A DNA stretch of 64,000 nucleotides, from positions 1 through 64,000 of the forward strand of contig MEDY01000284.1 in the NCBI GenBank assembly GCA_001724265.1, given 5' to 3'. This DNA is from Rhizaria sp. SCN 62-66 (lineage: Eukaryota). How positions within the stretch are numbered: the first letter of the stretch is position 1; every line of letters begins with the position of its first letter. Positions 9,460 through 62,963 of this stretch are shown here, one piece after another. The notes beneath the pieces are model-generated. The model searched no databases and was not told the DNA's origin. It worked only from the letters and a program-made list of their open reading frames with translations. Position numbers and translations under genes: made by a program.

Positions 9460-12111
9460 TCAGTTGCCGCCGTAGTTGCTGCCAGGCGTGTCGGCAAACA
9501 GCAGCTTGCGCTCGGCCGCGGGCGTGCTGTCCATGCCGGAGCCGGCGTGCGCGCCGCTTACGCCCGCAGCGCCGGGCCCGGGCGTGGCGTCGACCATCGC
9601 CGCGCCCGCGCCCGCGCCTGCACCGGCACCGACGTGAGCACCAGCGCCAGCGGCTCCGGCGCCGTAGCGCGAGATAGTCACGCCGACAGGCGTCACGCCG
9701 GTGCCACCGGTGCGCGCCGCGAACGCCGCCCCGGCCTCGTCGCCGGGCGTGGGCGGCGTGGAGCGTGGCACGGCCGCAAACGCGCCCGCCTGCAGCGCCA
9801 CGCTCGTCGCCGCCGCGGGCAGCGGCAGCAGCCCGTTGCCGCCCGCGCGCGCCGTCAGCGCCACGACGTCGCCCGTGCGCGCACCCGCCGCGGTGGCCGC
9901 CGCGGCGGGGCCGGGCGAGTGCCCGACCGAGCCCGCGTCGCCGGCCGCGCCGTCGTCGTCGCGCATACGCTTGGCGCGCCGGATCAAGAAGCCGTCGTCG
10001 CTGGCAGCGGGCGTCGCAGACGCAGTTGACTTGTTAGGGCCCGCGAGCAGACGCACCTCGGCGGCCTTCTGCTCGACATAGATCACCTCGCTGCTCTGCT
10101 TGCGCGCGGCCTCCTCGGCGGCGCGCGCGGTGCGCATCTGCGCGCGGCGCGCCGCAGTCGCAGTCGCCAGGATCGGGCGCAGACGCGCGCGCGCCGCGGC
10201 GGCGGTGGCAGCCATGGCGGCCGCATCGCCCGCGCAGGCCTCGAGCGACGCCGCGGGCGCGGCGGCCGTCAGCGCCTTCTCCGGCGGCAGCTCCAGCGCG
10301 CCCTGCTTGACGAACACGGTCCCTGCGGCCGCCGCGGTCGCAGCAGCCTCAGCGTTGGCGGCGCTGGCGTGCGCGGTCCAGCCCGCAAATGAGGCCGGCG
10401 CGGCCGCAGGGGCCATCAGCGCGGTCATCTCCGCCATTCCCGTCCGCAGCTGCGCCGTCAGCAACGACACGCGCTGCGCCAGCAAAGCGGCCTGCGCAGG
10501 TGTCGCGCCCGCGGGCGTGGCGCCGCCGCGCGCGACAAACGCCGCCAGCGCTGCCGCAGTCGCTGCCAGCGTGGCGGGTGCGGCGGCCGTGACGGGCGGC
10601 GCGCACGCGGCCGAGGACAGCGCGGGCGACGGCAGCCACGATAGCACGCGCGCGGCGCCTGTCACAGCCGCGGCGGCCTCCGCAGCGGAGATGGTGACGG
10701 TGGGCGCGGCGTCTGCGGGGATGGGGGCGGGGGCAAAGCGCGGATAGCCCTCCGGCCCCAGCAGCAGCGCCGCGGCAGCGGTCATGGGCGGGCGCGCGAG
10801 CGCTGAAAAGGCGGTGTACGCGGCGTTAACGCGCGCGCAGTAAGCCTCCGCGGCGCCCGGCGCGGCGAGGTGCGCGGCGGCGGTGGCCACGGCGGCGAGC
10901 GCGACCTGCGACGGCGCGGCCGTGAACATGGCGTCGGTGAAGTAGGACGCGAGAATGTACTCGTCGGCCAAGCGCGAGATCCAGCAGAGATCCGCCGCGC
11001 TCACGGGGACGGACGCGCTCTCGCTCTGGCTCTGGCTCGGCGCTGCCGCGGCAATGCCGGGCTCGAGCTTTATGGCAGCCGCTACGGTGATGTTGCTGTT
11101 AGCATCGTTGTCGCTGAGGAAGAGTTCGAGCACGCCGCGCTTGGCCCTGAAAGGCGTGGTGATGCGCACTTGACACATGATTCCGTTCAGCAAGTCCGCC
11201 TCGCCCGCGACAATCACGGTCTCGTTGGCGCCCGCGGCCGCGGCCAGATCTTCGATGCGGAGGAAGTTCTCGTCCGTCTTGCCCGCGATGAGCAGCGCCG
11301 ACACGAGCAGCGCCTTGGGGTCCGCCTCCTGCGGCGAGTGCAGCAGGAAGAAGCGGCGCACGTACGCCAGCGCCATCGCAACGGTCGAGTCGGGGCACAT
11401 CTCCACGCCCGTCGCGCTGCGGAACGTGCTCGGCGACTGCAGCGGAACCGCGGACGCGGACGCAGACTCAGACGCAGAGTCGCTTCCTGGCGCATCAGCA
11501 TCGGCACTGCCGCTGCTGCTGGAGGCGCTGGGGAGGGGGATTGAGGCGGCGGCGCGGCGCGGCCGGTTGCGGGCGTTAAGCGCGCGCTGCATGTGCAGCA
11601 AACGCGAGAGATAAAACTGCACGAGAGTGTGCTCCTCCTCGCGCGACAGCGGCTCTCCCGCATTCACTCCAGCAGCACCCGCGGCGGCCGCTGAGGTGGC
11701 TGAGGGGTCCTCGACGTAGGCGACGCTTGTGTCGAGATCGTCGGCCTCGCCCGTGGCTGCGCTCGCAGCAGCGGCGTCAGCGGCCGCGGCGGCGAAGAAC
11801 GCCGGGTTCGGACGCAGAGGGTCATGTGCGGCCGAGTCCGCCGCGGCGGCAGTGGCGGCAGCGGACGAGGGCGCGAGCAGCGACTGCGGGAGAGCGGGGG
11901 CCAACGCCGCGGGCGAGGCGGCCGAGGGAAGCAGCGCAGCGCCGCGGCGACTGGGGCTCACAGCAAGCGCGGAGCGCGCGGCGGCAGCTGCGGAGGCCGT
12001 GATTGCGAGGATTGCGGCACGGGCGCGCTCGTGCGTGAGGGCGCGGAGCTCGCACAGGTGGTCATGCGAGAAGAGCCAGTACTTGCGATGCGAAGAGTCA
12101 GAGAAGTTCAT
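9460..12111 (-). CDS. CCNH: Cyclin H-like protein (CAK/TFIIH subunit), expanded by Ala-rich insertions
   Basis: N-terminus MNFSDSSHRKYWLFS..L.ELRA, then LSREEEHTLVQFY, a cyclin box (TVAMALAYVRRFFLLHSPQEADPKALLVSALLIAGKTDE), ITTPFRA and FTDAMFTAAPSQVALAA. ATG at 12111, stop TGA. Confidence 0.85.
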   Translation of the reverse strand: MNFSDSSHRKYWLFSHDHLCELRALTHERARAAILAITASAAAAARSALAVSPSRRGAALLPSAASPAALAPALPQSLLAPSSAAATAAAADSAAHDPLRPNPAFFAAAAADAAAASAATGEADDLDTSVAYVEDPSATSAAAAGAAGVNAGEPLSREEEHTLVQFYLSRLLHMQRALNARNRPRRAAASIPLPSASSSSGSADADAPGSDSASESASASAVPLQSPSTFRSATGVEMCPDSTVAMALAYVRRFFLLHSPQEADPKALLVSALLIAGKTDENFLRIEDLAAAAGANETVIVAGEADLLNGIMCQVRITTPFRAKRGVLELFLSDNDANSNITVAAAIKLEPGIAAAAPSQSQSESASVPVSAADLCWISRLADEYILASYFTDAMFTAAPSQVALAAVATAAAHLAAPGAAEAYCARVNAAYTAFSALARPPMTAAAALLLGPEGYPRFAPAPIPADAAPTVTISAAEAAAAVTGAARVLSWLPSPALSSAACAPPVTAAAPATLAATAAALAAFVARGGATPAGATPAQAALLAQRVSLLTAQLRTGMAEMTALMAPAAAPASFAGWTAHASAANAEAAATAAAAGTVFVKQGALELPPEKALTAAAPAASLEACAGDAAAMAATAAAARARLRPILATATAARRAQMRTARAAEEAARKQSSEVIYVEQKAAEVRLLAGPNKSTASATPAASDDGFLIRRAKRMRDDDGAAGDAGSVGHSPGPAAAATAAGARTGDVVALTARAGGNGLLPLPAAATSVALQAGAFAAVPRSTPPTPGDEAGAAFAARTGGTGVTPVGVTISRYGAGAAGAGAHVGAGAGAGAGAAMVDATPGPGAAGVSGAHAGSGMDSTPAAERKLLFADTPGSNYGGN

Positions 12112-12638
12112 TGTGGCTCGGACGCGTGCGCGCTGTGCAGAACTCAGGAAATCCAAGGCTGGAGCAAAGTGGCAGTGTGTGTGGAAGCTGGATATGAATG
12201 CAAGAGCTGAGAAAGACAGAGGCAAGGCGATCCTCAGTTGAGCCAGTTTGCGAACGGCCTCAAAAGACGGGGTTAACCTATGGTTATTGAAATACAATAA
12301 GATTATAATGCGTGTAAGCTAATAAAGTTAACTAATACGCCAGAGATATATCGTGCTGTTACGTTATATCTCTCTGCAAAGTCTTCCAAATAAGCATGAC
12401 CGTTGGCCTTGTCTGGCGAGGACCGTGAGTGAGCTCTCGGTGAAGAGTTGGATTGCTATCAAGAACTCGAATATCTCCTTAGAATATCCGTCTGTTGCGA
12501 TAAGTGTTGTTTTTTCAGGCTTTCTAACTCTTATAATTCAATATCCTTGAATTCTTCTTTCCTAGTCACTCGCTAAGACTTCCATCTTGCTGGATATTGC
12601 GCTGACCACAACCATCTTTGCTCGTCGTACTGAAAGCC

Positions 12639-13889: not shown

Positions 13890-14009
13890 TTAATTGGTGT
13901 TATCTTTGCCCTTCGCGTTGCTGTTGCTCTTGCCATTGCCGCTGCCGTCGCCAAACCATTTGGCCTGGCCCTTGCTGCGCCACAGCGACTTCGCGTTCTT
14001 ATTGCCGCC

Positions 14010-24152: not shown

Positions 24153-24657
24153 AGCGGGCGCTGAGGAAAACAAGAAAAAGTGTCGTGTGGTAGCGCGAGC
24201 GCGCTTTCGGGATAGCTTGAGAGGAAGAAGGAGAAAAGGCTGCAGGGAAGAGTTGGAAGTGGTTCCGTGAGGATCAGAACAGCGAGTCGAAAAATTGTCG
24301 AGTTGAAGGCCAAAATATCCGTTAATAGCAGTTTTAAAAGCAAATCAGAATGCACACTAACAAGAAAAAATCAATGCAGTGATAACTTTTTCACCAAGTC
24401 TCGGTAACCGCGCCGTAAGGCCCCAAACTGACCCGCGATGCGGACGTTCCGTACGGCGACTCTCGAGGTGCGCCTATGTGGCGAGATGCTGAGAAAGTAG
24501 CTAAATCGATCGACTTTGAGAAGGTCTACGTCATCCAGACTGCGTCAGATTCAAACATAGCACAGCTGGGCTTATTTAATTATGGCTTAATTTTACTTTA
24601 TTTAATTCTTATCTCTTCTATTTTTTTCTATCTTGTGCTATCATTCCTCATAGCCCC

Positions 24658-28272: not shown

Positions 28273-28653
28273 GCGTACGAGTAGCCCACAACTCTGAGTC
28301 TTGCCCGATCACTTTCGGTGCAGAAATTATATATTAGTCTAATTTGATAAACTTACTGTTTAAGTTGGTAATACACCAGTCATGTACTGTTTTCTCATCA
28401 TTTTCCTTTGCAAGCGTGAGAACAAAGGCGTTTGTGGTCGCCAGCACTTGCGAACAAAGCAACTTGAAAACTTTGCGAAACCTTCGAGTTTAGATCTCTG
28501 TATCACAGTTGTGGTTAATCAATCTAATGTATGGTTTAAGTATCTCGAAATTGTAACAACATGCGCAAATATAAAATGCCTCTTGAGACACTTGAATACT
28601 TCCCCCATTCACTTGTTTTCCTCGTTTCGCTTAGATCCCTCTCCATCCTGCGG

Positions 28654-30483: not shown

Positions 30484-31393
30484 CAAGCAGTCCACTGAGC
30501 GTCAAACAACGACCAAGAGGCACAAGACAGGGCAAAGACAACGAAGTGAGCGATTGAAGGGGAGTCAACTCGTGCAAGGGAAAGTCGCGGCTCTAACGCA
30601 TTACAGTGACCGTAAACAGAAAAATGGAAAGAAGTCCAAAATGCACCATCGTCATTTCATCTCAAAAGTATTCGTAAAAATCTCACATAACCTTGCTGAG
30701 GCTCTCAAAACGCTGTCAATGTTCGAATCGTTACTCCAAACTCAGTCGGCGCTTGGCTGGCTGGTTGTGACCGTTTGCGGTTCGCGAAAATGGCTGAGCC
30801 GCTTTGAAAACTGACATATTTATCCCTCATGTGACTTGTAATAAAGATATATGCTGGAGATTTTGTGGTGTCAAATATAATAAGTGACTTTATTTCTTAA
30901 AATGCATTTTTAACTCTTATTACATGCAGTTGATGCCCTCATACTGCGTGGTACGAGACATTAGTCACTTGATTCTTGCATCTTTCAAGCAGCATACATT
31001 ACAGCTTGCCCCCCAATACAGACATACTTACTTTAGCGAAGCTGTTAATCATTATTTTAGTTAAATCATGAAAATGATTTGTCCTAAGTTTCTCTAAGAA
31101 GATGCAAAGAAGGATTGCAAAAATGTTTCGTTTAAGTTGAGATATTACTTTATCACATTAAATATCTAAAATTTCGACCGTGTGAAATTTTAAACTTGAC
31201 TTTCCTTACTTTTTCGCAATATAACACGTGAGATAAAAGTTGAAAATGAAGTATAGTCTACAAAAATTTAGAGTACATATGTATTAACTAGTATTATTCG
31301 CAGAAAGTGTTGTTACAAAGAGTATACGTTCATTCTGATGTTTTTCACTGTTCACGTGACTGACAAATTCACAGTTTCTACTCGCGCGACGCC

Positions 31394-34513: not shown

Positions 34514-34566
<53 letters not shown>

Positions 34567-34900: not shown

Positions 34901-35630
34901 GGGTGAGTCCGCGCGCGCTGTGACGAGCGCAGGACGGGGAAGACGTGAGGCGAAGGGCAGCAAGGTGAGCTGGGGGACGAGGGAGAAGATGCGGTTTTGT
35001 ACAGCCAAATAACGGAGCTCAGAGATGCAGCTGATTTAAAAGGTATCAACAAGGACTTTACATATAATACAACAAGGTTGCCCTCATGACATTTCGGAAA
35101 TCCGTTGAAGACGCAGGAATAGCAGATGATTGCAGATTGGGCTTCGTGGAGTCAATGATGTGACTCACGAAACCCTGATATTATGTGCTTTAAATGTTTA
35201 GTGTTCGAGTGCCGCTTTCAAAGATAGCAAGAAACACCAGCATTCTTCCAGGAAAACTGACACAATGCGCGTTTGACGGCCAACATAGTGCCATAGACGA
35301 ACTACGAAGTCGCTTGCATTGACGAATCGCCAGCGACCCGTTGGCCGAAGATTGCGAGCAGCACGCGTGTGGTTGCCTCGAGTTCACGATTGATTTCGTC
35401 TGGATTTCGTCCTTTGAAGAGTCTTATTCTACGCTTTTCGAAATTTCAATGAGAGTCTGTCTATTATATTAAAACCGTGTATCAATAACTCATCACCTCA
35501 CTGAGATACACATGTTTCTGTTTATCGCTCCCTGCCCAGCACCAGATCCCTCAAACAACCGCTCCTGCGTGCCGCTCTCGCCTCGTTCCCGCCTGCTAAG
35601 TCGACTACCTACTTTTCCCCGCTGCTGAGC

Positions 35631-42387: not shown

Positions 42388-43322
42388 GGAGCGCGCGGCA
42401 ACCTTGGCGGACAACGCAGAGTTCGCTCCGGAGTCTGGGTTTGGCAGAGGTTAACGTGATTGGATTGTGAAAAGGAAGTTCGTCAGTATGAGAAATATAA
42501 AACAAATCATAAATACAAAACAAAACCCCGCATCATAATAAGCGTGAACAGACTCTGACGATCAATTCGCCTCAGGATAGCAATATTCGATTTGGTACAT
42601 GTACTTGATGGCACACTCCCCTCCACCTTACGGTCACAATGCCATAGCAATAAGCAGGATTGTAACAGAAAAGAGAGTTAAACATGGAGAATCGAATGGA
42701 AGTGTATTCAAATCAAGTTTTGTTGCAAAACAGTTGTCTTAAACGTGGAGACAGGATCTTCGTAGAGTGAGCCGAGCTGCTTGTTGTCTTTAGGGAGGAA
42801 AAGAAAAAGCAATTGGAACTTGTTGTTAGTACGAGGTACAGGTAAGATGCAGTGAGGGGGAGGTGGTGGAACCCGACGCGTTGCGTCACCACAGCAGACA
42901 TAGCAATGCGAATCAGATTCAACAGACCAGATCTACCAGCAGATAACGCGCGACAATGTGGACGTGCTCCATTAATCACTCGGTCTCTCACACCGTCATC
43001 AACCAGCCACACGTGAACAGACAGCGCACACACCTCCACATACACCCAGGAGGGCGGAGCAGAGCGGCGAGAAAACGCCTGCAATTGCTACTCTGTTCTA
43101 AAAAACAACGAATGAACTAACGCGTTGAGAGTGTTGATGTTCATGGTTGAAGTCTCAGTCGTGATTGCGTGTTTTTGCGTGCAAGTGCGTATGAACGAGT
43201 GTGATGTCAGCTTTCGTTTGTGGTTCGTTTGCTTGATATATTATAATTATGATAGTGAGGGACGAGGGGATCAATAACACCATTATCCATCACTTGTTGT
43301 GAGTGCAAGGTGCGTGCATGAG

Positions 43323-44390
43323 TTAGGTGGAAAAACGCTCACGCTCACCGATTTTGAACGCTTTGGTCGCGGAGGCGGTCTTGGAACCGGCAGTCTTGGC
43401 ACCGGCGGTCTTGGAACCGGCAGTCTTGGCACCGGCAGTCTTGGCACGGGCAGTCTTGGTGGCAGACTTGGACGACGCGACCTTGGTGATGGGATTGCCG
43501 GACATCGAGGAGTCGATGACGGCCGTCTTAGGGATGGTGGCCTTGGCGACGAACTTGACCTTGGGCTCGGGAGTCGCGGCGTTGATCTCAGAGATGGCGC
43601 CGTCGGGGCCGTTGCACTGGCAGCGGCGCTTCTGGGCCTCGAGGAACGGCTTGCTACCGCCGAGGTTGACGGCCTGGTACATGGCAGTGGGAACAGCGCG
43701 GTAGATGATGGCCTCATTGGCGACGGCCGCCTCGAGGCACGTCTTGAACGTCGTGTCGATGTTGTGCTTGGACGCACCGCACGTGTCGTAGCCGATGTCG
43801 TGCGCGTTGCAGCAGCTGGTGATGCTCTTGGGGAGGTGCGTCAGCAGATGGTGGATCGTCTTGCCGGTGACCTCGGAGCCGCAGCCGTCGAAGAACGCCT
43901 GGGTGCCGGGCACGGTACCCATGGTGTAGCCAGCGGGGCACGTAGAAAGGTCGGGAATGCTCTCGACGTCGGCCTCAGCATCAGCGTCGGCATCAGCGTC
44001 AACATCGGCGTCAGCCTCAGTCTCAGCGTCAACATCAGCGTCAGCGTCAGCGTCAACATCAGCGTCAGCGTCAGCGTCAACATCAGCGTCAAGCTCAGCC
44101 TCGTTCTCAGCCTCAGCGTCAGCCTCAGCGTCAGCTTCGGCCTCGAGCTCAGCCTCGAGCTCAGCCTCGGCGTCAGCGTCAGCATCAACCCCGGCGTCAG
44201 CCTCAGCCTCAGCATCCACCTCGACCTCAGCATCGACCTCAGCCTCAGCGTCCATCTCGAGGAAGGCAGCGTCGTCGACCGAGAGCTGAGAGAACTCAGC
44301 AGTGGCCAGGTCGACCGCAGTAGCGGGGGAGACCATGACAACAGCCATCGAAAGGGCAAACGCGGCCGCCAGAAAATAGGCAAAACGCAT
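43323..44390 (-). CDS. Secreted group XII-like phospholipase A2 with an acidic N-terminal repeat region and a basic repeat tail
   Basis: Signal peptide [25 protein letters not shown], then a (DA/EA)n tract. The domain reads DGCGS...[23 protein letters not shown]...[20 protein letters not shown], like PLA2G12. KTAG(A/S) tail, stop TAA. Confidence 0.8.
43376..43460. repeat. 15-bp tandem repeats encoding KTAG(A/S)
   Basis: gtcttgg(a/c)accggc(a/g) units are repeated about 5 times. Confidence 0.8.
43975..44255. repeat. 6-bp-unit (tcagcg/tcagcc) coding repeats encoding DA/EA dipeptides
   Basis: Directly visible within the PLA2 gene. Confidence 0.8.
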
Positions 44391-45157
44391 TGTCCACACT
44401 CTGTTGGGGTGTAGCAGCAAAAACAAAAAAGAGAGAACACACAAGGGTGAGTGAGTGTGACGACAAAGACAGACAGGGAATTGGAGTCAGAATACCCATC
44501 AATCAAGTGATACGCGTTTAAAACCAAGATAGTAAATCTAAATGTTAGTCATGACACATGATTGCAGGCAATATGCACGCGTATGAGCTTTAGTTCTGGA
44601 TATGGACTGCTGTTGTAACGTAAAGAGGCCAGCAGAGTCAGAGCCTGGCCAAGCGACACAAAGACACCAGTTCCAGTCCACATCTTCCCTGACCGGCCCA
44701 ATAAAACAAAGATATAAGCGCAACACATTTACTAATCCAAATTCACGAACTTCGCACGCAGTCTCCGCTGCTCTCTGCGCCGCTGCAGGTAATGCAAGTT
44801 CCTCCTTCAGTTTGGCTCGGTCGGTTGTGGGTGGCGACGAGGGCTCTCGTGGTGAGCGACCGTGAGTCGCAGGGCATTCGACCGGTCAGTCCGCTCGAAA
44901 GTAAGCCGCTTTGGGTGGGCGACTAAAACAAAGCTCGTTCTCGACTTGGCGTGCGTCAATTGAATTGCTGTTGATGTATTAGTTTTATTCAAAGCATGCT
45001 ATGTTGTGTGTTTTTCTTTTGACTGGCAACTCGCCGCTTTGTGCCGCTGTGGATGCCTGGTCAGGACCTCCCTCACTCTCCTTTTCGACCTCTCACTGTG
45101 CCCCCCCCCGCCCGTCTTTTCTCCCTTTCTTTGCCGTCGTCTGCAGTGTGTGACAAC

Positions 45158-46124
45158 ATGAGGATGATGCTCATGGTGTTGATGGCCCTCATTGCCATCG
45201 CTTGTACGTCCACACTTTCTCTATCTTGCTCTATGCCGCTCGAAAGTTCAACGAGCTCCACTCGACTTGCTTCCCCCCTTTTTTCCCCTACACCTGTGCT
45301 GTCCCTATTCCTCTTTCCCCTTGCTCTTGACTCACATTACCTGATACTTAACATTTCACCCTTCCCTCTTCACATCTCTGCGTGTAGTTGCGGCTGCTGC
45401 TGAGCCCGCGGCGAACCTCCAGAAGGTTCCTGTCGTGCCTGCTCCTGCGCCCATCGTCAAAGACGGCGTTAAGCTGTTCCACGCGACCGTGGTTGACCCC
45501 AACTTCCCTTCCCCCATCGTCAACGCCGATGGCTCCATCTCAGGTGTCCCCGTCGTGCCTGCACGGGCGATCCGCTCTGACGGCTACATGCACCTTCCCC
45601 CCGTGCCCGTGGTCGCACCCAAGTACCACCGCCGCGCTCTCCGCCGCGTCGCCAAGTCCCTCGACCTGCTCGACAACGCCTACGACGCCCTCACCACTCA
45701 CCTGCGCGACCTCACTGTGATGCGCGCCAAGGTCCAGCGCAAGCTCGCGATGCTGCAGGCCGAGCACGTCCGCCACGGCGCCATCGTGCTCCCCGCGCTG
45801 CCCGTTAACACATCGCTCGCAACTCCCGTGGTGCCCCTCGGCGTCAAGCGCATGCTCCGCAGCTACCTCATGTCCGCTGTCGAGACCGGCGCCGCCGCCG
45901 AGGGCCAGGCTGAGGCTGAGGCTCAGCACGCCTCGCTTATCGAGACCGAGGTCGATGCTGAGGCCGAGGTTGACGCTGAGGCTGAGGTTGATGCCGAGGC
46001 TGAGGTCAATGCTGAGACTGAGGTTGATGCTGAGGCTGAGGTCGATGTTGAGGCTGAGGCTGAGGTTGATGCCGAGGCTGAGTACGAGGCTGAGTACGAG
46101 GCTGAGGCTGAGGAGGAGATGTAA
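45158..46124 (+). CDS. Secreted protein with a coiled coil and a C-terminal (DAEAEV)n acidic repeat; exons 45158-45203 and 45388-46124
   Basis: The signal peptide MRMMLMVLMALIAIA|FAAAA is split by a GTACGT...TAG intron (45204-45387) in matching phase. Stop TAA. Confidence 0.75.
45204..45387 (+). other. Spliceosomal intron (GTACGT...TAG)
   Basis: Pyrimidine-rich; removal restores the signal peptide and the frame. Confidence 0.8.
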
Positions 46125-47309
46125 AGAACTCACGTGTTATGCTCTTTATATGAGTGATAAAGGTTTTCTATAAATGGAAGATCTTTTGTGACTGCTGTTG
46201 CTGTTGTGTACAAGAACAAAGAAGAGAATCAAGAAACCGTTCTTTTTTCAATCAAATATCGATGACATATTGGCTGACAGACGACACTTCTGTGTTGTCC
46301 AAAATATGTGGACTCATTTTCATGCACCCTCATATAGCCCAATACATTCCGATCATTTCAAGTACACATCATTTTTTTTGGCGATAGAACAGAAGCTGAC
46401 AACGGCTGCTGATCTTAGGGGGCATGCTTCGTGAAAGCGGTGCACGATTGCTGTACAATTGCATATGTCACCACTTAATAGACACAACACCGTATGCCCC
46501 TCATAAAATCACAAACTAACCTTAACTTGAAAGCCATTGTGCCAGTGCCTCAAGACTAAGTAAGACATTTCCTGTTCCTTTGGTCTAGCTGTACACTAGC
46601 TTTTAATAAATGGGCTACAGTGAGACCAAATAAGGTGTTGTGTACAAAAATGAAGCTGCAGATAGGTGATAACGTGACATACATCGACTGAGGTGTGACC
46701 ATTTTTGTTACGACTACGACTGACTTCGTCTCTGGACCTAAAAAAGCAAGGCTGTTCTTCAACGGCTTAACTTTAAACTCTAGCCGCGGACAAGGGGGAG
46801 TGACCACTAACCGACCCTGCGTTTTCTTGGCAAATGGTTTGTGAGCTGCCAAGAAGCGTGAAGGCGGTGTGAGTAAGCCAAACTGATAATTAACGCTTGT
46901 GTGATTCTATCCAACAATTCATCGAAAGCTGACAGCGTCAGTCTGTGGACGAACAGACGCTGCTCGAGTTGGCTCGCGACCCTACGCGACTTCGCTCGAG
47001 GTTTCCGCTCTTTTGAGCTAACAAACAGCATGTAGGCGATCAACAGACGATGCAAATCCATTTAGTTGTTTCTAGGAGCTTCACAATACCTCTCTAACCA
47101 ATTTGCACTTCGACTCGCTCAGTTTTGAGCGCATTATGTCCTTTAACCGCTGCATTCCAAGCTCCGTTTGAACGACACTCCGGACAACTCCCTCTTGCTC
47201 CTTCTTCCCTTTCACTTTTCCCTCTCTCTCTTGATGATGTTGTCTCACCTTTATGTTCTTATCTTTCATCTGTTTCTTTTCTTGTCCATATTTCCTATTT
47301 CAGCGTACG

Positions 47310-51788: not shown

Positions 51789-53271
51789 GTCTTGTCGCAG
51801 TAGGCTGTTTCCCTGTGATATCTCCTTCTACTAAGACTTGTTTGATGTTACGTCAATTTTCACACAACTCTCACACCTGTTTTACTTTTAGTATGGAGTC
51901 GAAACGCTTTTTTAACCGAGCCCTAAGTCAATCCTGTGCATTCATCGCACAAAGGAAATAAGAAGCCGGATTTTAAAAACGGTAACACGAGCATTTTGCC
52001 ACTTTGTGTCCTTAGCTGTGTATGTGTGCGCCCGTCTGTAAAAGAGATGGGCCTCCCCCAGTCAGCACAAACGTGTGCGGTGCTAGATGTCTTTCTTTGC
52101 AATTTGTTTTTTCACTCGTTCTGCTTTAAACCTGCATAGTGATGCTTTAGTAGTAGAGCTTCATGCGCGTGTTTGAGAATGTTCTTTTCTTTTCCTGATT
52201 GTTGTACTTGTTCGTGATTTTCGTTGCCCACACGACACACCTCGACTCATCTCGCTCAAGTAGACTTTTTTTTGGTCGCGATTTTTTTTTGCACCCCCGG
52301 ATTAAGTCGCTTGTTTGTAGAAACTTGTTTGTGCTGATTTGCTGGCGATGGAACTGTACGGATATGTTTGAATCACATTTTTCTTTTATAGTTGTTCTTA
52401 TTTTAAAACAAATGGATAACTCTGAAGCGTATTGCGACGACGATGATGACGGAGCTAAGCTTTGTCTTGTCTCTGTCGTCTTGGTTGTTGTGAAGCTTTT
52501 GTTTTGGAACGCTTTGCTGCATAATTTCATCTTGTGTATTGCAATATATGTTGGCATTGCTTTAAGTCAAGTTTCTAGTTCGCCCATTTGTCGGTTCTAG
52601 CATCTTGTAAGTGTGCTTGCATAGCGCGTACATTATCACCATCAACACCCAGTTCTTTCGTGACCTGAGTCGCATTGGCTGGTCCATGTTGTGGTGTTAC
52701 TAGTCATTTGCGATATATTTCACCACCAACCAAACCTTGTTATGGACCCGTAGCCTGTGTAAAAACAGTCTGCCGAACCATCATTGTCGGAGCGAGTGAC
52801 TCCTTCAATTTCATGTAATCTCGAAACAATAAACACGAGTTAGTTGTTTCTTATCCCACTTATTTTATCAAATGAAATGCCTGGCTTACTTCTAAGCTCG
52901 TCAACTTAACGTGACACTGCCTGCTGGTCGTAAGCAAGAACACCTGCGCGCGTATTAAAACGCTTTCTTTATTGAAGCTTCAATTGCTCCTAATAATTGC
53001 TCCTAATAATTCAATGTCCATGTCCATGTCCTATCATTCAGTGTGGAAAATACTTGTAGCCAGTCAAAAAGTCAATTACGGCCCCACCATCCCAGGGCCA
53101 CTTCGGGCTAGTGCACGGCGATACACAGGGGCGCATGACACAGCTAGATGCCCAGCAGCATCGGAAGACAATCTTAGTTCCACATGATCACACAGTCTGA
53201 CTCATAAGGCATAAACACACATCAGGTGAACGCGCGCTGCTGAGTTCAAAGACGCTGTTCTCAGTCTAGCT

Positions 53272-54656
53272 TCAACCCATGCGCTGCTGCTGCTGTTGCT
53301 GTTGCTGTTGCTGGTATCCATTCTGAAACCCTTGCTGATACGTGTACTGCTGTCCTAGTCCCTGTCCCTGTGCCGGTGCGAGTTGCTGCTGTTGTTGCTG
53401 CTGTTGCTGCTGCTGCTGTTGCTGCTGCTGCTGTTGCTGCTGCTGATGTTGTAAGTGCTGGTCATGGCCGCCCCCGCTGCCCGCACAGTAGTGGTTGCGC
53501 GCATCGTCGATATCAAAACTGCGCAGCGTGGCCAGCCTGCGGCGGCGCTGCACGTTCTCGTGCCGCGCCAACGCCAGCTCGGCGCGCTTGCGGTCGGCGT
53601 CGCCCGCGTTGAGCCACACATCGCGCTCCACCATCCACTTGGCGTCGGCCGCGTTGGGGCCCGTCCACGCGGGCCGGCCGCGGCGCCGCACCTCGGCCTC
53701 GAGCCGCCAGCGGCGTTGCACCATGGCTTCGGCGTCGTAGGGGCACGTGTGCGACAGCGGCTGGTTGTGGGAGCCCGCGGAGAGGCGCGACTTGGCTTCG
53801 GACGGGTTTGAGTACCGCCACAGCGCGCGCTCGCTCTGTTGCTGCTGCTGCTGCTGCTGCTGTTGATTGTTCGCGTGCGGGTGGAGCCCGGCGAGAAAGG
53901 TGTCCGTGTCGGCGCGGCGGCGCGTCATGCGTCGGCGGTAGTCGTCGAGCGGCGACTGGCCCTGGAAGTCGACCTCGGTCGGCCGGCGCTCTAACTCGTG
54001 CCCGCGCGCCGTCAGCGACGCCGCGGACGACACGGGCACCAGGCGCGCGCTCGACGACGACGCGGAGGGCGCGCCGTGCACAGTGTACACGGGCCCGTCC
54101 GCGCTGCTGCTGCTGTTGTTGTTGCCAGCAATGCGCGCGTACGAGGCGGGTGGCGGCCCGTATCGGCTGGGCACGGCGTCGGCGCCGTACGTCGCGGCCG
54201 CGGGCGTGGACATGCCGCGCTGCGTGCGCGCGGGGTTGCAATGCGCGGGCGGGAGACGCTCCATCTCGAGCGTGCCGGCGAGTTGGCGGCGCGCAAGCTC
54301 AGGAAAGAGCTTGACGGAGCGAAACTCATCGATGCGACGCAGCTTCGCAGCCCACTGCTGTTGCTGCGCGTCCGCGCGGCACGCCTCATCCGCAACAAAA
54401 GCGGCGCGGCGGGCGTCCTGGTTCTCCTTCAGGATGCGACGCTGCTCGCGCTGAGCAGGAACATAGCAAGAGCAAGAGCAGAGGAAGTAAAAGCGAGTGG
54501 AGGGTGAGTTACGCGGAACTTTGGAACAGAAGAGAGGACTTTGAGAGATTAACGGGACAAGGAACGTACCATTTGGTCACGATGCTCCTCAAGCAGCATT
54601 AGGTATGCCTGATACTCGTGGTCTTGCGGCCCTCGCGCGATCTGATGAGAGGCCAT
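53272..54656 (-). CDS. Hypothetical coiled-coil/polyQ protein; exons 54656-54570 and 54450-53272
   Basis: MASHQIARG...HRDQM|REQRRILKENQ is joined by a GTACGT...CAG intron (54569-54451), in frame with ORF 53272..54264. Stop TGA. Confidence 0.7.
53380..53446. repeat. (CAG/CAA)n polyQ-encoding repeat
   Basis: A tgctgc/tgttgc run is directly visible. Confidence 0.8.
54451..54569 (-). other. Spliceosomal intron (GTACGT...CAG)
   Basis: Removal gives a phase-0 join of two coding segments. Confidence 0.75.
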
Positions 54657-55072
54657 GCTGCGATGTAACAAAGTAAAGTGCAGTGTCAGCGAAGTGACCA
54701 GTGAGCGTCGCAGCGAGGGGCATTGAATACACAATTTACAAAGCATATACAAAAAAAAAACATCTCACCAAAAAACGCCGTTCATAGCGTATATACGAAT
54801 CAAGGCGAAGATACATTTTGTCAAAGTCGGCATGCTGAAAACACGGTCGAGCAGGGCCAGCGGCGAAACGGCTGGTGCACTGAGAGACGCGGGTTTTTGT
54901 TTTTGCGGCGCTGCGTGAATTTGATCGTCAAAGTCGCACACCCGTGTAAATTTGGATAAACAACGAACACTACTAGCTGTCCATAATTCAACATTTGTAA
55001 GAGCCACCAATATAAGGGACTTGTACTGCTTGAAACGTGCCACTCTGTCTGCCGGCTTTGAGCGCTTCACCG

Positions 55073-56566
55073 ATGTCGACGTATGGCCCCCGAGACGTAC
55101 AGGCGGCCGTGATGGAGCTGCGCGCACACCCCAAACCGCGTCCACAGACCTTCACCAATACTTATGAGGAGACTGTCACCGCACACCCCACGCTCGCCGC
55201 GACGCTTTTCTCTGCCGACGAGGCCCGTTCCCTGCTTGCAACGCAAAAGTCAGCGTACGTTCCCCCGAGCTCTCTGTTAGTACTTGCTTTCTCGCTCTTC
55301 ACTGCCATTGACGCAAGAAAACTCACAATTCGCGACTTAATTGCCTTCATTTTCTTCTGCCACAACAGTACTCTGCGGTCAAAACCGCTTCAGTTTTCCG
55401 GCTCGGCATCGCTGACTGGCACTGCCGGCTCGCTGCCACCGATGTCTCACACGGGCGCCGACCTCAGCGACCTCGCCGACTTGTCGCGCGCGTCGCCACA
55501 CTCTGCGGATGCGCGTCGGCGGCACGCGGCGTACCGCGAGGCGTCGCAGCAGCGCGTGCACGACATCCAGGTGCAGATCAAGGCCGCCGAGGCCGCGGCG
55601 ACGCAGCGCGAGGACGCCGCTCTCTCTCGCGCGCTTGACGCACTGCACGGCTAGCGCGCCTTTGTCTCGGGCGTCGGCGTGTACCTCGCGCAGCACGACG
55701 AAGCGCTGGCGCGGCGCCGCGAGACGCTGCACAAGGACTGGTCGCGCACCGTGTTCGACGAATTGCAGCAGCAGGTGCAGCGCGGGCTCGACGCGCGCAG
55801 CACGGCCGCCATCGAGCGCCGCCGCCGTGACGCGCTGCAGCACTACCTGGACGCGAGCAACCGCAAGGCGCACGTTGGCGGCGTCGTGCTGGACGACGAG
55901 GAGCGGCTCGGCGTCGACGCCCCCGCCGCGCGCGCGCACGCGGCCGCCATCAAGGTCGACGTGTCGCGGCTGCAAGACCCCACGCAGCGCGGGCTCGACG
56001 CCATCCGCCGCGAGGAGCGCCTGCTGCGCTCATTCAACTCCGCTGCGACCGGTGGCGGTGAGCTGAGCGACGCCGCAGCGGCGGGCGCAGCCGTGGGCGG
56101 GATCGACGCGTTAGCACCGCGGTCGATGCTGCCGGTGACGGCGTGGGCGCAGGTGCGGCAGACTCAGGGCCGCTACGCAGAGCAGGCCGACGCGGCCGAG
56201 CTCGCGCGCCAGGACCCGCGGTGGGGCGCCGGCGCGGGCCCGCGGCCGCTGCGGCTGCGCGCGACGGGGCAGGCGCACCCGGCGACGTTCGCGTCCTCGG
56301 TGGCGATGGATCACTTTACGCCCGCGGCCGAGCTCGCGGTCTCGGACCCCCAGGTGCAGCGCGCCACGCGCGCGCGCGAGCTGGCGCTGGCACGGAGGGC
56401 CGCGCGCAAGGCCGCGCTGGGCCCTGGCGCCGCGGGCGCGGAGGACGAGGGCGACACGGCTGCCGTCGTCGACCACTCGGCCGCCTACGCCAACAACGAA
56501 GGCCGCGGACGCGGCGGCCGCGTCGGCGCGGGCACTGGCGGCGTGTCTTCGATCACCACCCTGTGA
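55073..56566 (+). CDS. FAM228-like protein; exons 55073-55254 and 55369-56566; contains one in-frame TAG (55652-55654)
   Basis: ATG at 55073 and a GTACGT...CAG intron at 55255-55368. The frame continues LHG*RAFVSGVGVYLAQHDEALARRRETLHKDWSRTVFDELQQQV, which resembles the FAM228 conserved region from memory. Stop TGA. Confidence 0.6.
55255..55368 (+). other. Spliceosomal intron (GTACGT...CAG), 114 nt, no in-frame stop
   Basis: AT/pyrimidine-rich island with the consensus donor and acceptor. Confidence 0.7.
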
Positions 56567-56885
56567 GACTGCTGTTGCGCTCTTGTTATGTCGATGTGGT
56601 TCCCGACGTTGCAGTCTTTTGTCCAGCCGAATCGGTCAGTTCAAGCTTCACTTGTGTTGGGGATACGATTGCATTTTTCCTTTTTCCGTTCGTAGTTTCA
56701 TTCTGTATTAGTGTTGTTGTTTTGTTCACAACACAACTTTCAATATTCGTCTAGATAGCATTTTTCGTCTTAACCATTGTTTGGGCCAGTCTCATCCCAA
56801 GATTATTCGTGTTACACGATGCTCATACATAAAATACATTCATCATAACCACAACATTGATGAATTTCCGTTGCTTGGAGCAATT

Positions 56886-58174
56886 TCACCACCAGGAAGA
56901 AAACCAGCCCTTGTCGGACGCTGTTGCATTCTGTGCTTGCTGCTGCAGCTGCTGCAGCGCGGAGGCCTCACGCTGCGTCCTGAGCGCGCGCGCGCGGCGG
57001 GCGAGCTCACGCAGCTCCTCAGCGGGCACCACGGTGCCACCGGGCCCGCGCAGCCGGCCGTTGACGTCGTAGGCGTAGCCCGGCGGCAGCAGCGCCAGTG
57101 GGAGGCACTTGCGCACAGCACCGACAGGAGCGCTTGTACTCGCACTCGCAGCGGGGGCGGCAGCGGACTTGACGGGACCTGCGTTGGCAGCGTTGGAGAC
57201 AACATTGACATTTGCGTTGATGTTGGCAGTGGTGCGGACGGGTTGCAGCGGCGTCATTGCGGGGCCGCGCGGGGCCTTGCTGCGGCTAGTTCCCGCGCCA
57301 CGCGGTGTCGCAGGCGCCACCGCAGCAGCAACATGAGCAACAACAGCAGCGGCAACATGGGCACTGCGAGGCGGTGTGCTGAGCTGCTGCTGCTGCTGTT
57401 GCTGGTGCTGCTGCAGGCGACCATGGGTGTTGGCCGTGCCAGTCGCAGTTGCAGTGGCCGCTGAGGGCAGATGAGTGGCCCCACGGCGCAGCGCGGGCGT
57501 GCCAAGCGTGCGCGGCGTGCGCGCAGGCGTCTTTTTGCTGCCGCTATTGCACGCGCCAATAGCAGCACCACTGAGGCCCTTCATCGGCGTCTTGTGCGGC
57601 GTGCGCAGCGGGGTTGATGCACCCACACTCACAGAGCCACTGTTAGAGTGCGCGTTCGCAGAAGCGTTAGGAGCGGAGTCAGCGGCCTTGGGCACGAGCA
57701 GCAGGCCGCACGGCGAGCGCTGCAGTGCGCGGCCGTCCTAAGTCGTGACATAAGCGGCGCGCGGCGGCGTCGCCAGGCACTCGCGCTTGCCGGGGGTCTG
57801 CTGGCCGTTTCTCTCGTTGCAGCCGCTCTCGCTGCCGCTGTTATGGGTCTTGCTCACTTTCCTGGCGCCACCAGGCGTGGCCATAGCGCCGTTGTTGTTG
57901 TTGGGGCGGCCACCGGCGGCAGCGATGGCCTTGAGTGCGGCGGCGTGCGCGTCGCGACGGCGCGCGGCGTCTTCGCGCTCCTTGCGGAAGGCCAGAAATC
58001 GCTCTGCGGCCGCAAATTGCGCCACGAACTCGGCGAACACGGCGAAGAACTGCGGCCACGACAGCACCGCGGGCGCGCCCAGCGACGCGGCGGCCGAGGC
58101 GGAGAGGCAGCCTGCGCGCGCAGGCAGCACGGGCACAGCCGCCCACGCGGCCGCCAGTCCGCTCCCAGCGCCCG

Positions 58175-58205
<31 letters not shown>

Positions 58206-61200
58206 GTGGAAGCGCGCAACGGCGTCCGCGGCGGTGGCGGCGTCGGGGACAACCGATGCAGCGACGCCGAAGAAGGCCATCGCGTCGGCGGCGACGGCGA
58301 CGGCGGCGTGGAGCTGCGCGGCCGTCTCGTGGTACAGCGCCGCAGTGACCGCGGCGCGCGCGTGCAGCTGCAGCAGCGCGCGCTCGCCCGCGGCGTCGGC
58401 GGGCGCGCGGCGGAGCACCGTGGCCGCGGTGCGCAACACGGCCTCGATCTGCGCGAGTTCGGAGAAAATGGGCTCGCAGTCGGCCTTGGCGGCGTCGGCG
58501 AGCGCGGCCGTGTCGTGGATGAAGGCCACGCACTCTGGCCGGTTCTGGTGCAGAAACGTGACCAGGTAGTGCAGCAGGGTCGTGCCGCCGCCGGAGATGC
58601 CGCCAGCGGAGCGGGTGTCGCCTGTACGGACACGCGTGATACATGAGTAAGAAAGCAAGATGAGCAATAAAAAACAAAAGTTTTCGAAAAATATTAGAAT
58701 TTCATCGCAACAAAGTTAAAATGCGTCATATGAGTTCAATCTGCGCTGAGTATAGGAGATTTGTCGTACCGAGCTTCGTGAGGGTGGAGATGTGGAACGC
58801 CACGGCGGCGGGCTGGTCAGCGTTCATAAAATTGCCAAAGCGCAGAATGACGTGCAGAATGGTCCGCAGGTGCTGCGACGTCACCAGCGCCTCGCACGCG
58901 CGCACCGCGGCCGCCACGCGCGCCTGCATGCCGCGCAGCGCCGTCTCGGCGGCCTCGGCGTGCAGCGCGGTGGCGAGCTGCAGCCGCGTCTTGAGCAGCG
59001 GCGCGGCGCCCACCAGCGCGAAGACTTCCTCGGCAAAACCCAGCACGTGCGAGCGCGTGGCTGCCACCGCCTCGCGCCGCGCGGCCAGTCCGGCAGCCTC
59101 GCCTGCGGCCGCTGCATCGTCATCGCTAGGCAGCAGCCGCAGCAAGCGCTCGCGCATGCGCGCGCAGTCGGCCTCGGTGCGCCTGGCTAGCGTCGCAATG
59201 GCCTCGATCTCGTCCTGCGAGGGCGCGTGGCGGGCCAGACACTCCAGCGCGGCGTAGGGCAGCGCCGCGGCATCGGCGGCGGCGACCGCGGCGGCGAGCG
59301 CGGGCAGCGGCAGGCGCGCGGCGCGGAGCACGATCTCGAGCTGTCGAGCGCGGTCCGCGGCCAGCGCGGTCGCGGTCACGCGGGCAGACGGCGCGCGCGC
59401 GGCGGCCAGCGCGGCGTCGAACGCAGCGAACACGGCCGGGCCTTGACTGGCCGCGCCGTCACTGTTGTTGTTGCCGCTGCTAGAGCTCTTGTTGTGAGAG
59501 GATTTGATGGGCATGGCGGAAAATGTGCGCGCAAACTCGGCCTCATCAAACGGCAGCGCGGCGGCCTCCGAGCCGGACCAAATGGAGCGCCCCGCGCCAC
59601 GTGCGCGCGCCGTGGCCGTCACAGGTGACTGGGAGCGCGAGCGCGAGCGCGCGTTGAGCGCTGCGTGCTCGGCGTCGAGCCGCTGCCAGTGCAAGCGCTT
59701 CACACGGGGGCCTGTGCGCGCGGCGGCGGCGACGAGCACGGGCTTGGCTGCCGCCTTGCCACAGTCGCCGTCGTTGCCATCTTCGTCGTCGAAGAGACCG
59801 GGCGGCGCGGGCGGCGGCGCGGCCGTATTGCCCGACAGGAAATCGCCGAAAAGGTCTTCCGGCGGGGGCGGGGGCGCGCTGCCACAGCCGCTATCGCGCT
59901 CTCCCCTGCTAGGAGCGAGGTCGTCAAGCAGGCCAGCTGGCGCGGGCGGCGGCGGCGGCGGAGCGGTCGCAGCCAGCTCAGGGGCGGCGTTGCTCGCCAC
60001 AGCGACTGCGCTGTTTACGGCTGAGACAGTGGCAAGCTGGCTCTTGGCGGCCGCAAGCATCGCTGCGACGGCGTCAGATGCTGCGCTGTCGACAGGGCTC
60101 ACGCTTGAAGTCACACTGGCATTCGCGTTAACAGCGTCATCGTTGCTGGCGGCCGCAGCGTCAAAGAGCAGACTGAGCGGGTCCGTGACGTCCGACGCGG
60201 CGGCTTGACTTTGATCCCCCCGCGTCGGGCCCTTGCTGAGCACTGCGTCGGTCAGAACGGCATCAGTGAGCGCGGCGTCGTTGAGCGCAGCGGCGACGGC
60301 GCGCGCGACGGAACTGGCCACGCGTGCGGCGGCGCCCGGCGCAGCCACGGCCCCGGGGGCAACGCCGCGCACGCGCACAACAAATGTGCCCGCGTCGGCC
60401 CCAGTCTCGGCCAGCACGGCCGCCGCAGCGGCCTCAGCCTCGGCGTCAGCCTCGTCGGTGCCAGTCAAGTTGAAGCCGCGCACTGCAGTGGCCGCAGCGG
60501 GGAGCGAGACGTCAACCACTGCACCGGCTCTAGCCACGGGACCAGTACCGCTGACTGCCACGTGCTTGCGGCTGTGATCGCGGTCGCGGGGGCGATACGG
60601 TGTGGCGGGGCGGCCACGACCGCGCCTGTTCCCTGCCACAGCCCCGGACGCGGTGGAGGGCTCGGTGACGGTGTTGCGGCCGCGGGGCGGTGTGGCGGCG
60701 CCCTCGCAGTCGGCGGCGTCGGAGCCGGGCGAGCAGTTGTGTTGTGCTGCGCGCGCGCTGTGGTGGTGGCTGTTACCACGAGCGAACCCTTGGCCATTGT
60801 GAGCCTGACCGTGAGCGTGAGCGTGACCGTTAGTGTTGATGTGGTTGTGGCCGTTGCTGTCGTTCTGAGTGAGAGTGCGCGCAGCGGCCCCGCGCGGAGG
60901 CGGCGTGCGCATGTGATTCGCGCCCGCGGAGGCCGCCGCCATTACCGCAGAGGCCGCGCTCGCAGCGCTTGTCAGTGTAGAGTGTGACGAGTGTGCAGCG
61001 CCAGCGACGGGGCCAGCGACGGGGCCCGCTGCTGTGGCGCCGCGGCAAGAGCGCGGGGCAGTGCGGGGCTGCTGTGGTGCGGGGGAGCCAAGCGCAGTGG
61101 GGGGCACGTGCGCGGGGCGGCGAGCGGCACCGTTGCGGCCAGCTGTAGCGCTGTTGGGGTTGTTGCGACGCGCGTGGGCATCGGCTCGGTACTGCGCCTC

Positions 61201-61582
61201 GAGGAACGCGAGCTCTTCTTGCGCAGACGGGGCTAGGCATGCAAAAAAACACAACGCAATACACACATGTTAGAGGTACTTTGTCATCGCAACATGCTAG
61301 CTTTGTTCTCTGGCTGATGATATAAGGACAAGCAGGGCGGAAGATAGTTCAGGACGTACCTTCGAAGAGAGGCTCGAAGAAGGAGAAGATCTTGGGGAGC
61401 AGTGAGGTCTGCAGCGGATCAGCGCGTGGCTCGCGAAACCGTGCGTTCACATCGGCGGGGTTGCGCACAGGCATCGGGGAATAGGTCGCGCGCGGGGCAA
61501 CATACTGCTGTGGGCGCAGCAGAGCAGCATGCTCCACGCGGGGTCCACCTTCGTACGCCTCTGTCGACGGATACGCACCCAT
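56886..61582 (-). CDS. Formin (FH1-FH2); exons 61582-61360, 61232-58770 and 58621-56886; in-frame TAG at 57740-57738
   Basis: Short poly-Pro FH1 tracts. FH2 motifs KRLHWQRL, SIW, RARQLEIVL, ILRFGNFMN, and FHISTLTKL|GDTRS...TTLLHYL restored by splicing. Exon lengths sum to 4422 nt (3n). Stop TGA. Confidence 0.85.
58622..58769 (-). other. Spliceosomal intron (GTACGA...CAG) in the formin FH2 domain
   Basis: Removal restores the KLGDTRS motif. Confidence 0.9.
61233..61359 (-). other. Spliceosomal intron (GTACGT...TAG), formin intron 1
   Basis: Phase-1 join; AT-rich. Confidence 0.7.
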
Positions 61583-62023
61583 AGCCAATTATAAAGAAAG
61601 TAGGCTGTGTTTCTTAATACGTTAAAACGTGTGCACTTGTTCACAAACGTATGATCGGGATATTGACGAAGCAATTGACTGATCACGAAAGGCGTTGGCA
61701 TCACGGTTTCCAACGGCTACTACTTGCTTGTCGTCGCTTCGGATAAGCTGGACCGAAAAAAGAGCATGGCTGACTGCTGTGGTGAGACGGGAGAAGGACG
61801 AGAAAAACATCGCACTTCGCCTGGTTCTATCTATTCTGGCCGTCAAACGTGTTGATGTTGAGTTGAGAGTGCTATTGCACCGATTTTCTATCATTTTTCT
61901 TTTTAATAGTCGTTCTTTGTCGCTCACTCGACCCTCTGCACCGTGCCCTCTTTTCTCGGTCCGACCCTCGCCCTGCGTGCCCGCCCCCCCGTCCACGCCC
62001 CCCACCCGCAGCTTGCTGTCCCC

Positions 62024-62963
62024 ATGTCCAACATGATCGACGACGAGGACTACGCCGGCTCTTACGAGCACGGCCAGGACCTGAACGCGGCCTACGCCGA
62101 GGGCGGCGAGTCGCTCGCGTCGCAGGAGTACGGCGGCATGCACGACAACGACGCCACGGCCTCGGATGTCACTTTTGCGCCCCTGGGCGCGGCCGAGATG
62201 GACAAGGGCGTGGTTCACAACCTGCGCGTGCCGGTTCCGCTGCACCGCTTGACGCCGCTGCGCGACGCGTGGATGGACATCTACACGCCCATCGCGCAGC
62301 ACATGAAGCTGCAGATCCGCTTCGACACTGCAAAACGCTTCATCGAGCTGCAGACGTGCGAGGAGACCGAGTCGCCTCACGCCATCACCAAGGCCGCCGA
62401 CTTCTGCCGCGCCTTCGTGCTGGGCTTTGAGCTGCGTGACGCCATCGCGCTGCTGCGTCTGGACGACCTCTACATCGACACGTTCCACATCAAGGAAGTG
62501 CGCCAGGTGTCGACCGACGAGGAAGTGTCGCGCTCCATCGGCCGTATCGCCGGCCACAACGGCAAGACCAAATTCACCATCGAGAACGCCACCAAGACGC
62601 GTATCGTGCTTAATGAGGGCCAGATCAACATCCTCGGGTACGTTAATATCCCATCTTACAGTCTCTTATTATAGTCTCAGTGCAAACAACAACGAGCTTC
62701 ATCAGTACAAAGCAAATCTAAGTCACTTGATCACACAGCCTCCTATATCTCGCATTCTCATGCATCTTAGCTCACATTCAATCGCTCTGTTCCATTCTGT
62801 CTCGATCGTGTTTTGTATTCTTTTGACCATCATACTTCACAGTTCGTACAAGAACATCCGGTACGCCAAGGACGCCGTGGTGGCCCTTATCATTGGCTCG
62901 CCCCCCGGCAAGATCTTCACCCGCATGCGCAACGTCTCCACATACACCAAGCAGCGCTTCTAA
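62024..62963 (+). CDS. PNO1: Pre-rRNA processing KH-domain protein PNO1/Dim2; exons 62024-62637 and 62843-62963
   Basis: VPVPLHRLTPLRDAWMDIYTPI, KAADFCRAFVLGF..DAIALLRLDDLY, SRSIGRIAGHNGKTKFTIENATKTRIVL...ILG|SYKNI...GSPPGK. Intron GTACGT...CAG, stop TAA. Confidence 0.95.
62638..62842 (+). other. Spliceosomal intron (GTACGT...CAG) in PNO1
   Basis: Removal restores the conserved ILG-S(Y/F).NI C-terminus. Confidence 0.92.

Follow-up and report, generated by a model that had tools for sequence, protein, structure and literature searches.

Why do so many start codons in this stretch of DNA stand directly behind what looks like a 3′ splice site? The window analysed here is the whole 64,000-nucleotide (nt) stretch at positions 1 to 64,000 of contig MEDY01000284.1 (Rhizaria sp. 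SCN 62-66, assembly GCA_001724265.1). It is compact eukaryotic DNA in which the long exons have a G+C content of 70–79% and the spacers one of ~50%. Its genes lie 0.5–1.2 kb apart and occupy both strands, so they do not form a one-strand array of the kinetoplastid kind. An earlier note on this DNA had pointed to a pyrimidine tract closed by YAG (Y, C or T) just upstream of most start codons and had proposed that these are acceptors of spliced-leader (SL) trans-splicing. What is new here is that, judged by motif, tract and YAG, these 5′ sites have the anatomy of the 3′ ends of the organism’s own coding introns. SL trans-splicing is in our view the best single explanation of the 5′-proximal YAG sites, with a probability of about 0.5.

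The twelve AGs of the earlier note (12133, 24161, 30495, 34918, 44401 and 54658 on the minus strand; 24653, 28634, 45146, 47303, 62011 and 63586 on the plus strand) were each found to end at the given G on the given strand. Eleven of them lie 1–21 nt before an ATG and are preceded by a pyrimidine-rich stretch, while the one at 63586, described as lying further upstream, is 79 nt before the ATG at 63666; the triplet is CAG at 10 of the 12 sites and TAG at the other two. We then considered 18 gene starts chosen without using the AG criterion (genes carry G numbers below) and a strict rule: the YAG lies no more than 21 nt from the ATG, the 30 nt ahead of it are pyrimidine to at least 70%, and the 40 nt ahead of it are free of AG. 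Nine starts pass (G4, G5, G6, G7, G8, G12, G13, G14 and G19). When the 120 nt upstream are shuffled, blocks of 120, 40 and 20 nt give 1.5, 1.5 and 2.5 passes, and nine was reached in 0 of 2000 shuffles; under the same rule the control dinucleotides GA, AA and GG pass at 2, 1 and 1 of the 18 starts. In the window as a whole, the combination of pyrimidine tract and YAG occurs 23 times, which is not above block shuffles (18.6 ± 3.8). What lies beyond chance is its placement and its AG specificity: it is AG, not another purine pair, that closes the tract right before the ATG. The earlier observation is thus confirmed, and is stronger than first stated. The exclusion of AG from the tracts was dropped as a stand-alone test, since runs free of GA, AA or GG are equally long there and the depletion covers all purine-purine dinucleotides, not AG only.

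The coding introns provide the standard against which these sites can be read. All six introns found begin GTACGT, which bears out and extends by one letter the GTACG described before, and the letter that follows is C or T in all six; the hexamer occurs 15 times in the window, counting both strands. In G13 the intron at 45204..45387 (+) has a CTCAC 57 nt before its closing TAG, and a contig of RNA run X1 joins 45203 to 45388 across it (GT..AG). In the PNO1 gene (G19) the intron at 62638..62842 (+) has CTCAC 72 nt before its CAG, and the spliced reading ...ILGSYKNIRYAKDA agrees with the relative P0002. Four others were read from open frames alone. These are the introns of G15 at 54451..54569 (−; CTCAC 58 nt before CAG, the frame being continuous with the open reading frame 53272..54576), of G16 at 55255..55368 (+; CTCAC 47 nt before CAG), of the formin gene G18 at 61233..61359 (−; CTAAC 41 nt before TAG) and of G20 at 63746..63926 (+), which ends in CAG at 63926 and gives an open frame only if spliced, continuing into L001. 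L001 is identical DNA of the same locus on a 2.5-kb JGI contig, with the PNO1 intron retained; it starts by chance 5 nt before the PNO1 ATG and extends 506 nt beyond the window, so that G20 can be read past the window’s end. The AG at 63926 also lies 8 nt before an ATG and was tried as a cis-paired acceptor in the 5′ untranslated region (UTR). It was rejected as the end of the coding intron: that ATG is not a start, because a stop follows after three codons, and the real start is at 63666.

The position of the PNO1 intron, after ...ILG, is common to the window (62638), to L002 (3256), whose PNO1 is 64% identical, and apparently to P0003. In L002 the donor at this position is GTAAGT, and the protein P0003 continues into the intron with ‘GYV’, which is what a GTACGT there would encode. 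Judged from these comparisons, the PNO1 intron is old and its donor word has changed between relatives. The public prokaryote-style call for PNO1, P0001 (61951–62665), has a GTG start inside the pyrimidine tract, begins 27 residues upstream of the PNO1 start methionine and ends inside the intron.

The likeness between introns and 5′ sites lies in a distal motif. CTCAC precedes the AG of four of the six introns, at the distances given above, and CTAAC that of a fifth. At the 5′ sites CTCAC recurs at similar distances. In G13 (ATG 45158) the site spans 45092..45146 (+), with CTCAC at 45092, 55 nt before the CAG that ends at 45146 (and a further one at 75 nt). The PLA2G12-like gene G12 (ATG 44390) has its site at 44401..44455 (−), with CTCAC at 44455 and 44451 (55 and 51 nt), a tract and a CAG ending at 44401. 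In G14 (ATG 47310) the site at 47244..47303 (+) consists of CTCAC at 47244 (60 nt), a tract of 85% pyrimidine and a CAG ending at 47303. The same arrangement precedes G7 (ATG 30483; 30495..30550, −), with CTCAC at 30550, 56 nt ahead of a tract-borne CAG ending at 30495; G8, the Ank-FYVE-synaptobrevin gene (ATG 34900; 34918..34969, −), with CTCAC at 34969 and 34949 (52 and 32 nt) and a CAG ending at 34918; and G15 (ATG 54656; 54658..54705, −), with CTCAC at 54705 (48 nt), CTGAC at 54689 and a CAG ending at 54658. PNO1 (ATG 62024) has a longer version at 61923..62011 (+), in which CTCAC at 61923 is followed by 89 nt free of AG up to the CAG that ends at 62011. G20 (ATG 63666) has CTAAC at 63551, 36 nt before a tract-borne CAG ending at 63586 (63551..63586, +). 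No AG intervenes between CTCAC or CTAAC and the terminal AG in the five introns or in these eight 5′ sites. In the relative L002, too, the PNO1 ATG follows a CTCAC and a T-rich tract, with AGs 14 and 2 nt ahead of it.

A blind scan of both strands of the 64 kb, for CTCAC followed by 40–95 AG-free nt of at least 70% pyrimidine and then AG, gave 11 matches at nine AGs, of which three are intron ends and six are gene 5′ ends, with none elsewhere; block shuffles give 1.87 ± 1.43 (maximum 8). We infer that CTCAC/CTAAC is the branch site. Judged by sequence, the 5′-proximal sites bear the same signal as the intron 3′ ends and are very probably genuine 3′ splice sites.

The remaining 5′ sites are plainer. 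Upstream of G4, the PPR gene, the acceptor-like CAG at 24161..24162 (−) lies 8 nt before the ATG, and the sole CTCAC is 111 nt upstream of it, with AGs intervening. The TAG of G5 at 24652..24653 (+), 4 nt before the ATG, closes a T-rich tract that has no CTCAC, and that of G6 at 28633..28634 (+) is 20 nt before the ATG at 28655. The cyclin gene G2 has a CAG at 12133..12134 (−), 21 nt before its ATG, behind a weak tract of 68% pyrimidine with no branch motif; along with G9 (where the triplet is GAG), G10, G16 and G18 it lacks a convincing module. Two further candidates, absent from the earlier list, were found at G3 (ATG 12639), where CTAAC at 12524 and a tract lead to a TAG ending at 12565 (12524..12565, +), 73 nt from the ATG, and at G11 (ATG 42387), where CTGAC at 42486 and a tract lead to a CAG ending at 42435 (42435..42486, −), 47 nt from the ATG.

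If these sites are acceptors, to what would they be joined? SL trans-splicing would account for them as the 3′ splice sites of outrons. Each gene would have a promoter of its own; the spliceosome would then remove the leading part of the primary transcript as far as the AG and put in its place a short capped leader, supplied in trans by a small SL RNA whose gene lies elsewhere. That SL RNA is predicted to carry the organism’s invariant GTACGT donor. The existence of a common leader and its joining in trans are inferred.

RNA-type libraries from wastewater, biofilm and activated sludge contain large shares of the 43–52 kb stretch, and contigs of the runs X1, X3, X4 and X8 were aligned to 42401–62400. 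X8 behaves as DNA, and its contigs are colinear through the AGs at 44401, 47303, 54658 and 62011. Among the joints listed, none leads to any of the five AGs in this region. The contig that bears most directly on the question is record 3 of X1, of 681 letters, which lacks the G13 intron. It places 617 letters on 45388–46004 and 59 letters on the 5′ side, back to 45145, the A of the AG (45145–46) before G13; by subtraction (681 − 617 − 59), five letters, themselves unread, fall on neither piece. The contig hints that the G13 mRNA is neither colinear far past the AG nor joined to a long local exon. It also hints at a leader ending in AG whose assembly was cut short, either by thin coverage of the outermost 5′ letters or by variation among leaders; transcription starting at the A of CAG would fit it less well. 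Mean depth in X1 is 0.02 in 44402–45068 and depth in all three RNA-type runs is 0 in 46403–47069, both regions that X8 covers; these values were not used as evidence, and depth arithmetic gives only a hint that the contigs of G12 and G14 also begin near their AGs.

Searches further afield concerned PNO1 and G13. Scanning metagenome contigs with PNO1 gave 80 loci, of which L001 is identical, L002 is 64% identical and the rest, at 60% or less, belong to other organisms; no RNA contig of this organism was among the 80. A scan of genome contigs with P0003 gave 64 pattern matches, none confirmed. Searches with the protein of G13 exon 2, made to reach the leader through RNA-contig proteins, returned one relative (P0123, 43% identical) and nothing more; the database protein calls here are prokaryote-style calls on DNA, as is P0001.

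The same acceptor anatomy is what one would expect if most genes had cis-spliced introns in their 5′ UTRs, with short non-coding first exons and donors weaker than GTACGT. Such first exons, if shorter than the assembler’s 31-letter word, would leave no separate contig, and in 10 of 13 upstream regions one or more GT hexamers differ from GTACGT by no more than one letter. We searched the 13 intergenic stretches that run from a 5′ acceptor back to the next gene, together 8361 nt. The exact hexamer, present in 6/6 coding introns, occurs in 0/13 of them on either strand, where shuffles give 1.9. One-mismatch hexamers with the GT kept number 13 in sense and 15 in antisense, both below the 26 ± 5 of shuffles, so there is no excess of donor-like words ahead of the 5′ acceptors. 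Individual candidates exist, such as a GTAAGT that precedes 30495 by 537 nt and a GTGCGT that precedes 45146 by 196 nt, whereas none was found upstream of 47303 and 35629; a GTACGTC at 55100 (−), upstream of 54658, was taken as chance, as it lies within the coding exon of G16 on the other strand. Nor does the G13 contig favour a local first exon: it goes only five letters past the piece that ends at the AG, with no attached cis exon assembled further, and its alignment through the ‘AG’ would not fit exon ends set by GTGCGT (44951) or GTAATG (~44790). As far as sequence can tell, the acceptors are unpaired, though degenerate donors may exist, and we consider cis-splicing in most genes an improbable account of them.

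It is also conceivable that nothing is spliced here at all, and that the CT-rich tract with its CTCAC is a core-promoter element, the A of the CAG being the first transcribed letter as part of an initiator-like YA, which would leave 5′ UTRs of 1–21 nt. In filamentous fungi CT-rich tracts are known right upstream of start sites, and some protists combine initiators with very short UTRs. The genomic match of the G13 RNA contig ends exactly at the A of the CAG, as this idea predicts, and TATA-like boxes lie 55–81 nt upstream of the AG at G5 (TATTTAA, 55 and 81 nt before the TAG) and at G6 (a canonical TATAAA, 65 nt before it). Against this stands the composite of CTCAC, ~55 AG-free nt and YAG, which also ends coding introns and is found nowhere else in 128 kb of two-strand sequence. 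A promoter element would need to coincide with branch-site spacing, and a module common to intron 3′ ends leaves a promoter alone as an unlikely, if still conceivable, explanation. The specificity for AG over GA, AA and GG and the triplets themselves, 10 CAG and two TAG, are as at splice sites; the site at 63586, with its 79 nt, shows that the feature is not tied to a distance from the ATG; and the five extra letters of the contig would be left unexplained. Transcription starting at the tract, with no splicing, seems to us quite improbable.

SL trans-splicing itself has a mixed record. In its favour are the AG-specific placement of the acceptors, their intron-like anatomy, the want of GTACGT in the 13 upstream stretches, the hint from the X1 contig and the like arrangement before PNO1 in L002. 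Several results weigh against it. Half of the gene starts (9/18) fail the strict rule. The earlier statement that most of the acceptors have no well-placed GTACG donor upstream holds for the full hexamer, while the 5-mer does occur upstream of six of the 12 sites (12133, 24161, 24653, 28634, 54658 and 62011); candidates of the GTAAGT or GTGCGT type lie upstream of several sites as well. The perfect 8-bp palindrome CCGTACGG at 24449–24456, midway along the 506-bp spacer that separates the divergent genes G4 (−) and G5 (+), offers both strands a donor-like GTACGG, 294 nt upstream of 24161 and 203 nt upstream of 24653; a donor serving both genes, a promoter site that works in both directions or chance could each account for it. 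At G5 and G6 the TATA-like boxes would make any outron very short. The evidence from RNA comes from one contig of one study, in a run labelled ‘RNA? (probably DNA)’. Since that contig aligns over the AG itself, a leader ending in AG and a start at the A fit the alignment equally; no leader sequence was seen, the five unplaced letters being a subtraction from a single contig. In X4 a contig of a poly(A) library, which may be RNA or DNA, lies over 54751, 93 nt upstream of the 54658 AG, and might run across it. Within the 64-kb window the SL RNA gene with a GT donor and an Sm site, for which the earlier note had suggested a search, did not turn up: Rfam at its gathering threshold gave 0 matches, and GTACGT or GTAAGT followed by an Sm-like site within 130 nt occurred 0 times. 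Mixtures, for example of some cis-spliced and some trans-spliced genes, may take what weight remains.

The genes of the window and their assembly call for some further remarks. Pfam gives names to a golgin-like coiled-coil protein, a cyclin, a 3255-aa PPR protein, the Ank-FYVE-synaptobrevin protein, an HVA22/TB2 protein, the PLA2G12-like protein, a formin and PNO1. In a protein search PNO1 found one identical protein, then P0002 (67%) and P0003 (61%) and then matches of 50–60%, which come from all eukaryotic supergroups, so that PNO1 leaves the lineage unplaced. The G+C content of the genes is strongly bimodal, at 48–58% for G12, G13, G14 and their surroundings (42000–54000) against 70–79% for neighbouring genes; these three encode secreted or surface-type proteins. 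G13 (45158–46124) encodes a signal-peptide protein with C-terminal acidic repeats, (D/V)AEAEV and EAEYEAE; its RNA contig has the top per-contig depth figure seen in X1, and its sole database relative, P0123, lies on a 1.3-kb Logan contig. G6 (28655–28989) is a small gene of 111 aa with a signal-peptide-like N-terminus between two convergent genes, and the 1168-aa product of G8 (31394–34900, −) has an unusual combination of ankyrin repeats, a FYVE zinc finger and a C-terminal synaptobrevin (R-SNARE).

As to the letters themselves, a run of 24 N (41289–41312) lies within the open reading frame of G11. An extra T after 52265 in all four runs suggests an error of the window or a minor variant, and in X4 two letters of the T-run at 54751 are missing, as are three at 51596. 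Low-complexity coding repeats of the CTG/CAG type occur at 44130–44180, 54028–54125, 57383–57414 and 59263–60429; the jumps that contigs of X4 and X8 make between distant genes at such repeats were rejected as false joints, not splicing.

SL trans-splicing has a patchy distribution, the Paulinella report (PMC6053224) naming animals, Euglenozoa, dinoflagellates, Perkinsea and Rhizaria. Its repeated origin is debated, and every further lineage adds to the record, the more so if its genes stand singly on both strands and form no operons. If proven, the present case would be SL trans-splicing with an unusually rigid splice code in an unplaced lineage whose nearest PNO1 relatives are 61–67% identical. 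We raise tentatively, at rather less than even odds, that an undescribed, uncultured protist of wastewater or activated sludge trans-splices most of its monocistronic, both-strand mRNAs, with a rigid GUACGU donor and a CUCAC ~55 nt from the acceptor, and that this would be a further, probably independent, origin of the process. The practical consequences would be direct. Were trans-splicing to occur at the AGs, they would locate the real 5′ ends of the mRNAs, and the real start codons, in this genome; the in-frame upstream ATG of G14 at 47253 would be removed, and prokaryote-style calls that read through the tract, such as P0001, would be wrong. Calls of the P0001 type will mis-annotate this organism’s genes, and the fixed spacing of CTCAC and AG is a rule usable for annotating its introns and its gene starts.

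How do these sites compare with known systems? Judged from the search results, a literature search found nothing on SL trans-splicing in a wastewater protist and identified no lineage with a GTACGT donor. Budding yeast has few introns, a near-invariant donor, GTATGT, and a strong branch motif, TACTAAC. The present genome is likewise intron-poor, with a near-invariant 6-nt donor and a strong branch motif; it differs in having GTACGT as donor and (A)CTCAC/CTAAC 41–72 nt from the AG, and in that the 3′ module also stands before many start codons. With the CT-box or initiator promoters of filamentous fungi and short-UTR protists the sites have in common a pyrimidine-rich sense strand just upstream of the mRNA 5′ end, but we know of no such promoter that requires an AG or has an architecture in common with intron 3′ ends, and both are present here.

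The closest parallels come from organisms with outrons. In Paulinella micropora, experiments have demonstrated the leader, SL RNA genes (62 candidates) and the outron transcript (Matsuo et al. 2018, PMC6053224). According to the same report (PMC6053224), genes have their own promoters, the outron closes with a pyrimidine-rich region and an AG a short way ahead of the ATG, the local genomic DNA does not contain the leader, and transcription of the calmodulin gene starts 136–151 nt before the ATG. The pyrimidine-rich region and the AG shortly before the ATG are found here too; the Paulinella leader, in that description, ends in ...CTG, whereas the contig here suggests an end in AG, and the system of the present organism is known from sequence. 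The genes of the window also resemble nematode SL1 genes in having an unpaired acceptor near the ATG with the signals of cis-intron acceptors. In nematodes SL1, supplied by an SL RNA of the Sm class, is added at 3′ splice sites that lack a partner donor, lie from a few nt to some tens of nt ahead of the ATG and have cis-acceptor signals; nematodes have operons, AT-rich UUUUCAG acceptors and no distal branch motif. Unlike theirs, the genes here lie on both strands ~0.5–1.2 kb apart, with no operon-like spacing, and have a conserved CTCAC ~55 nt upstream. By analogy, the 5′ sites of this window are closest in appearance to the acceptors at which outrons end in Paulinella or in nematode SL1 genes.

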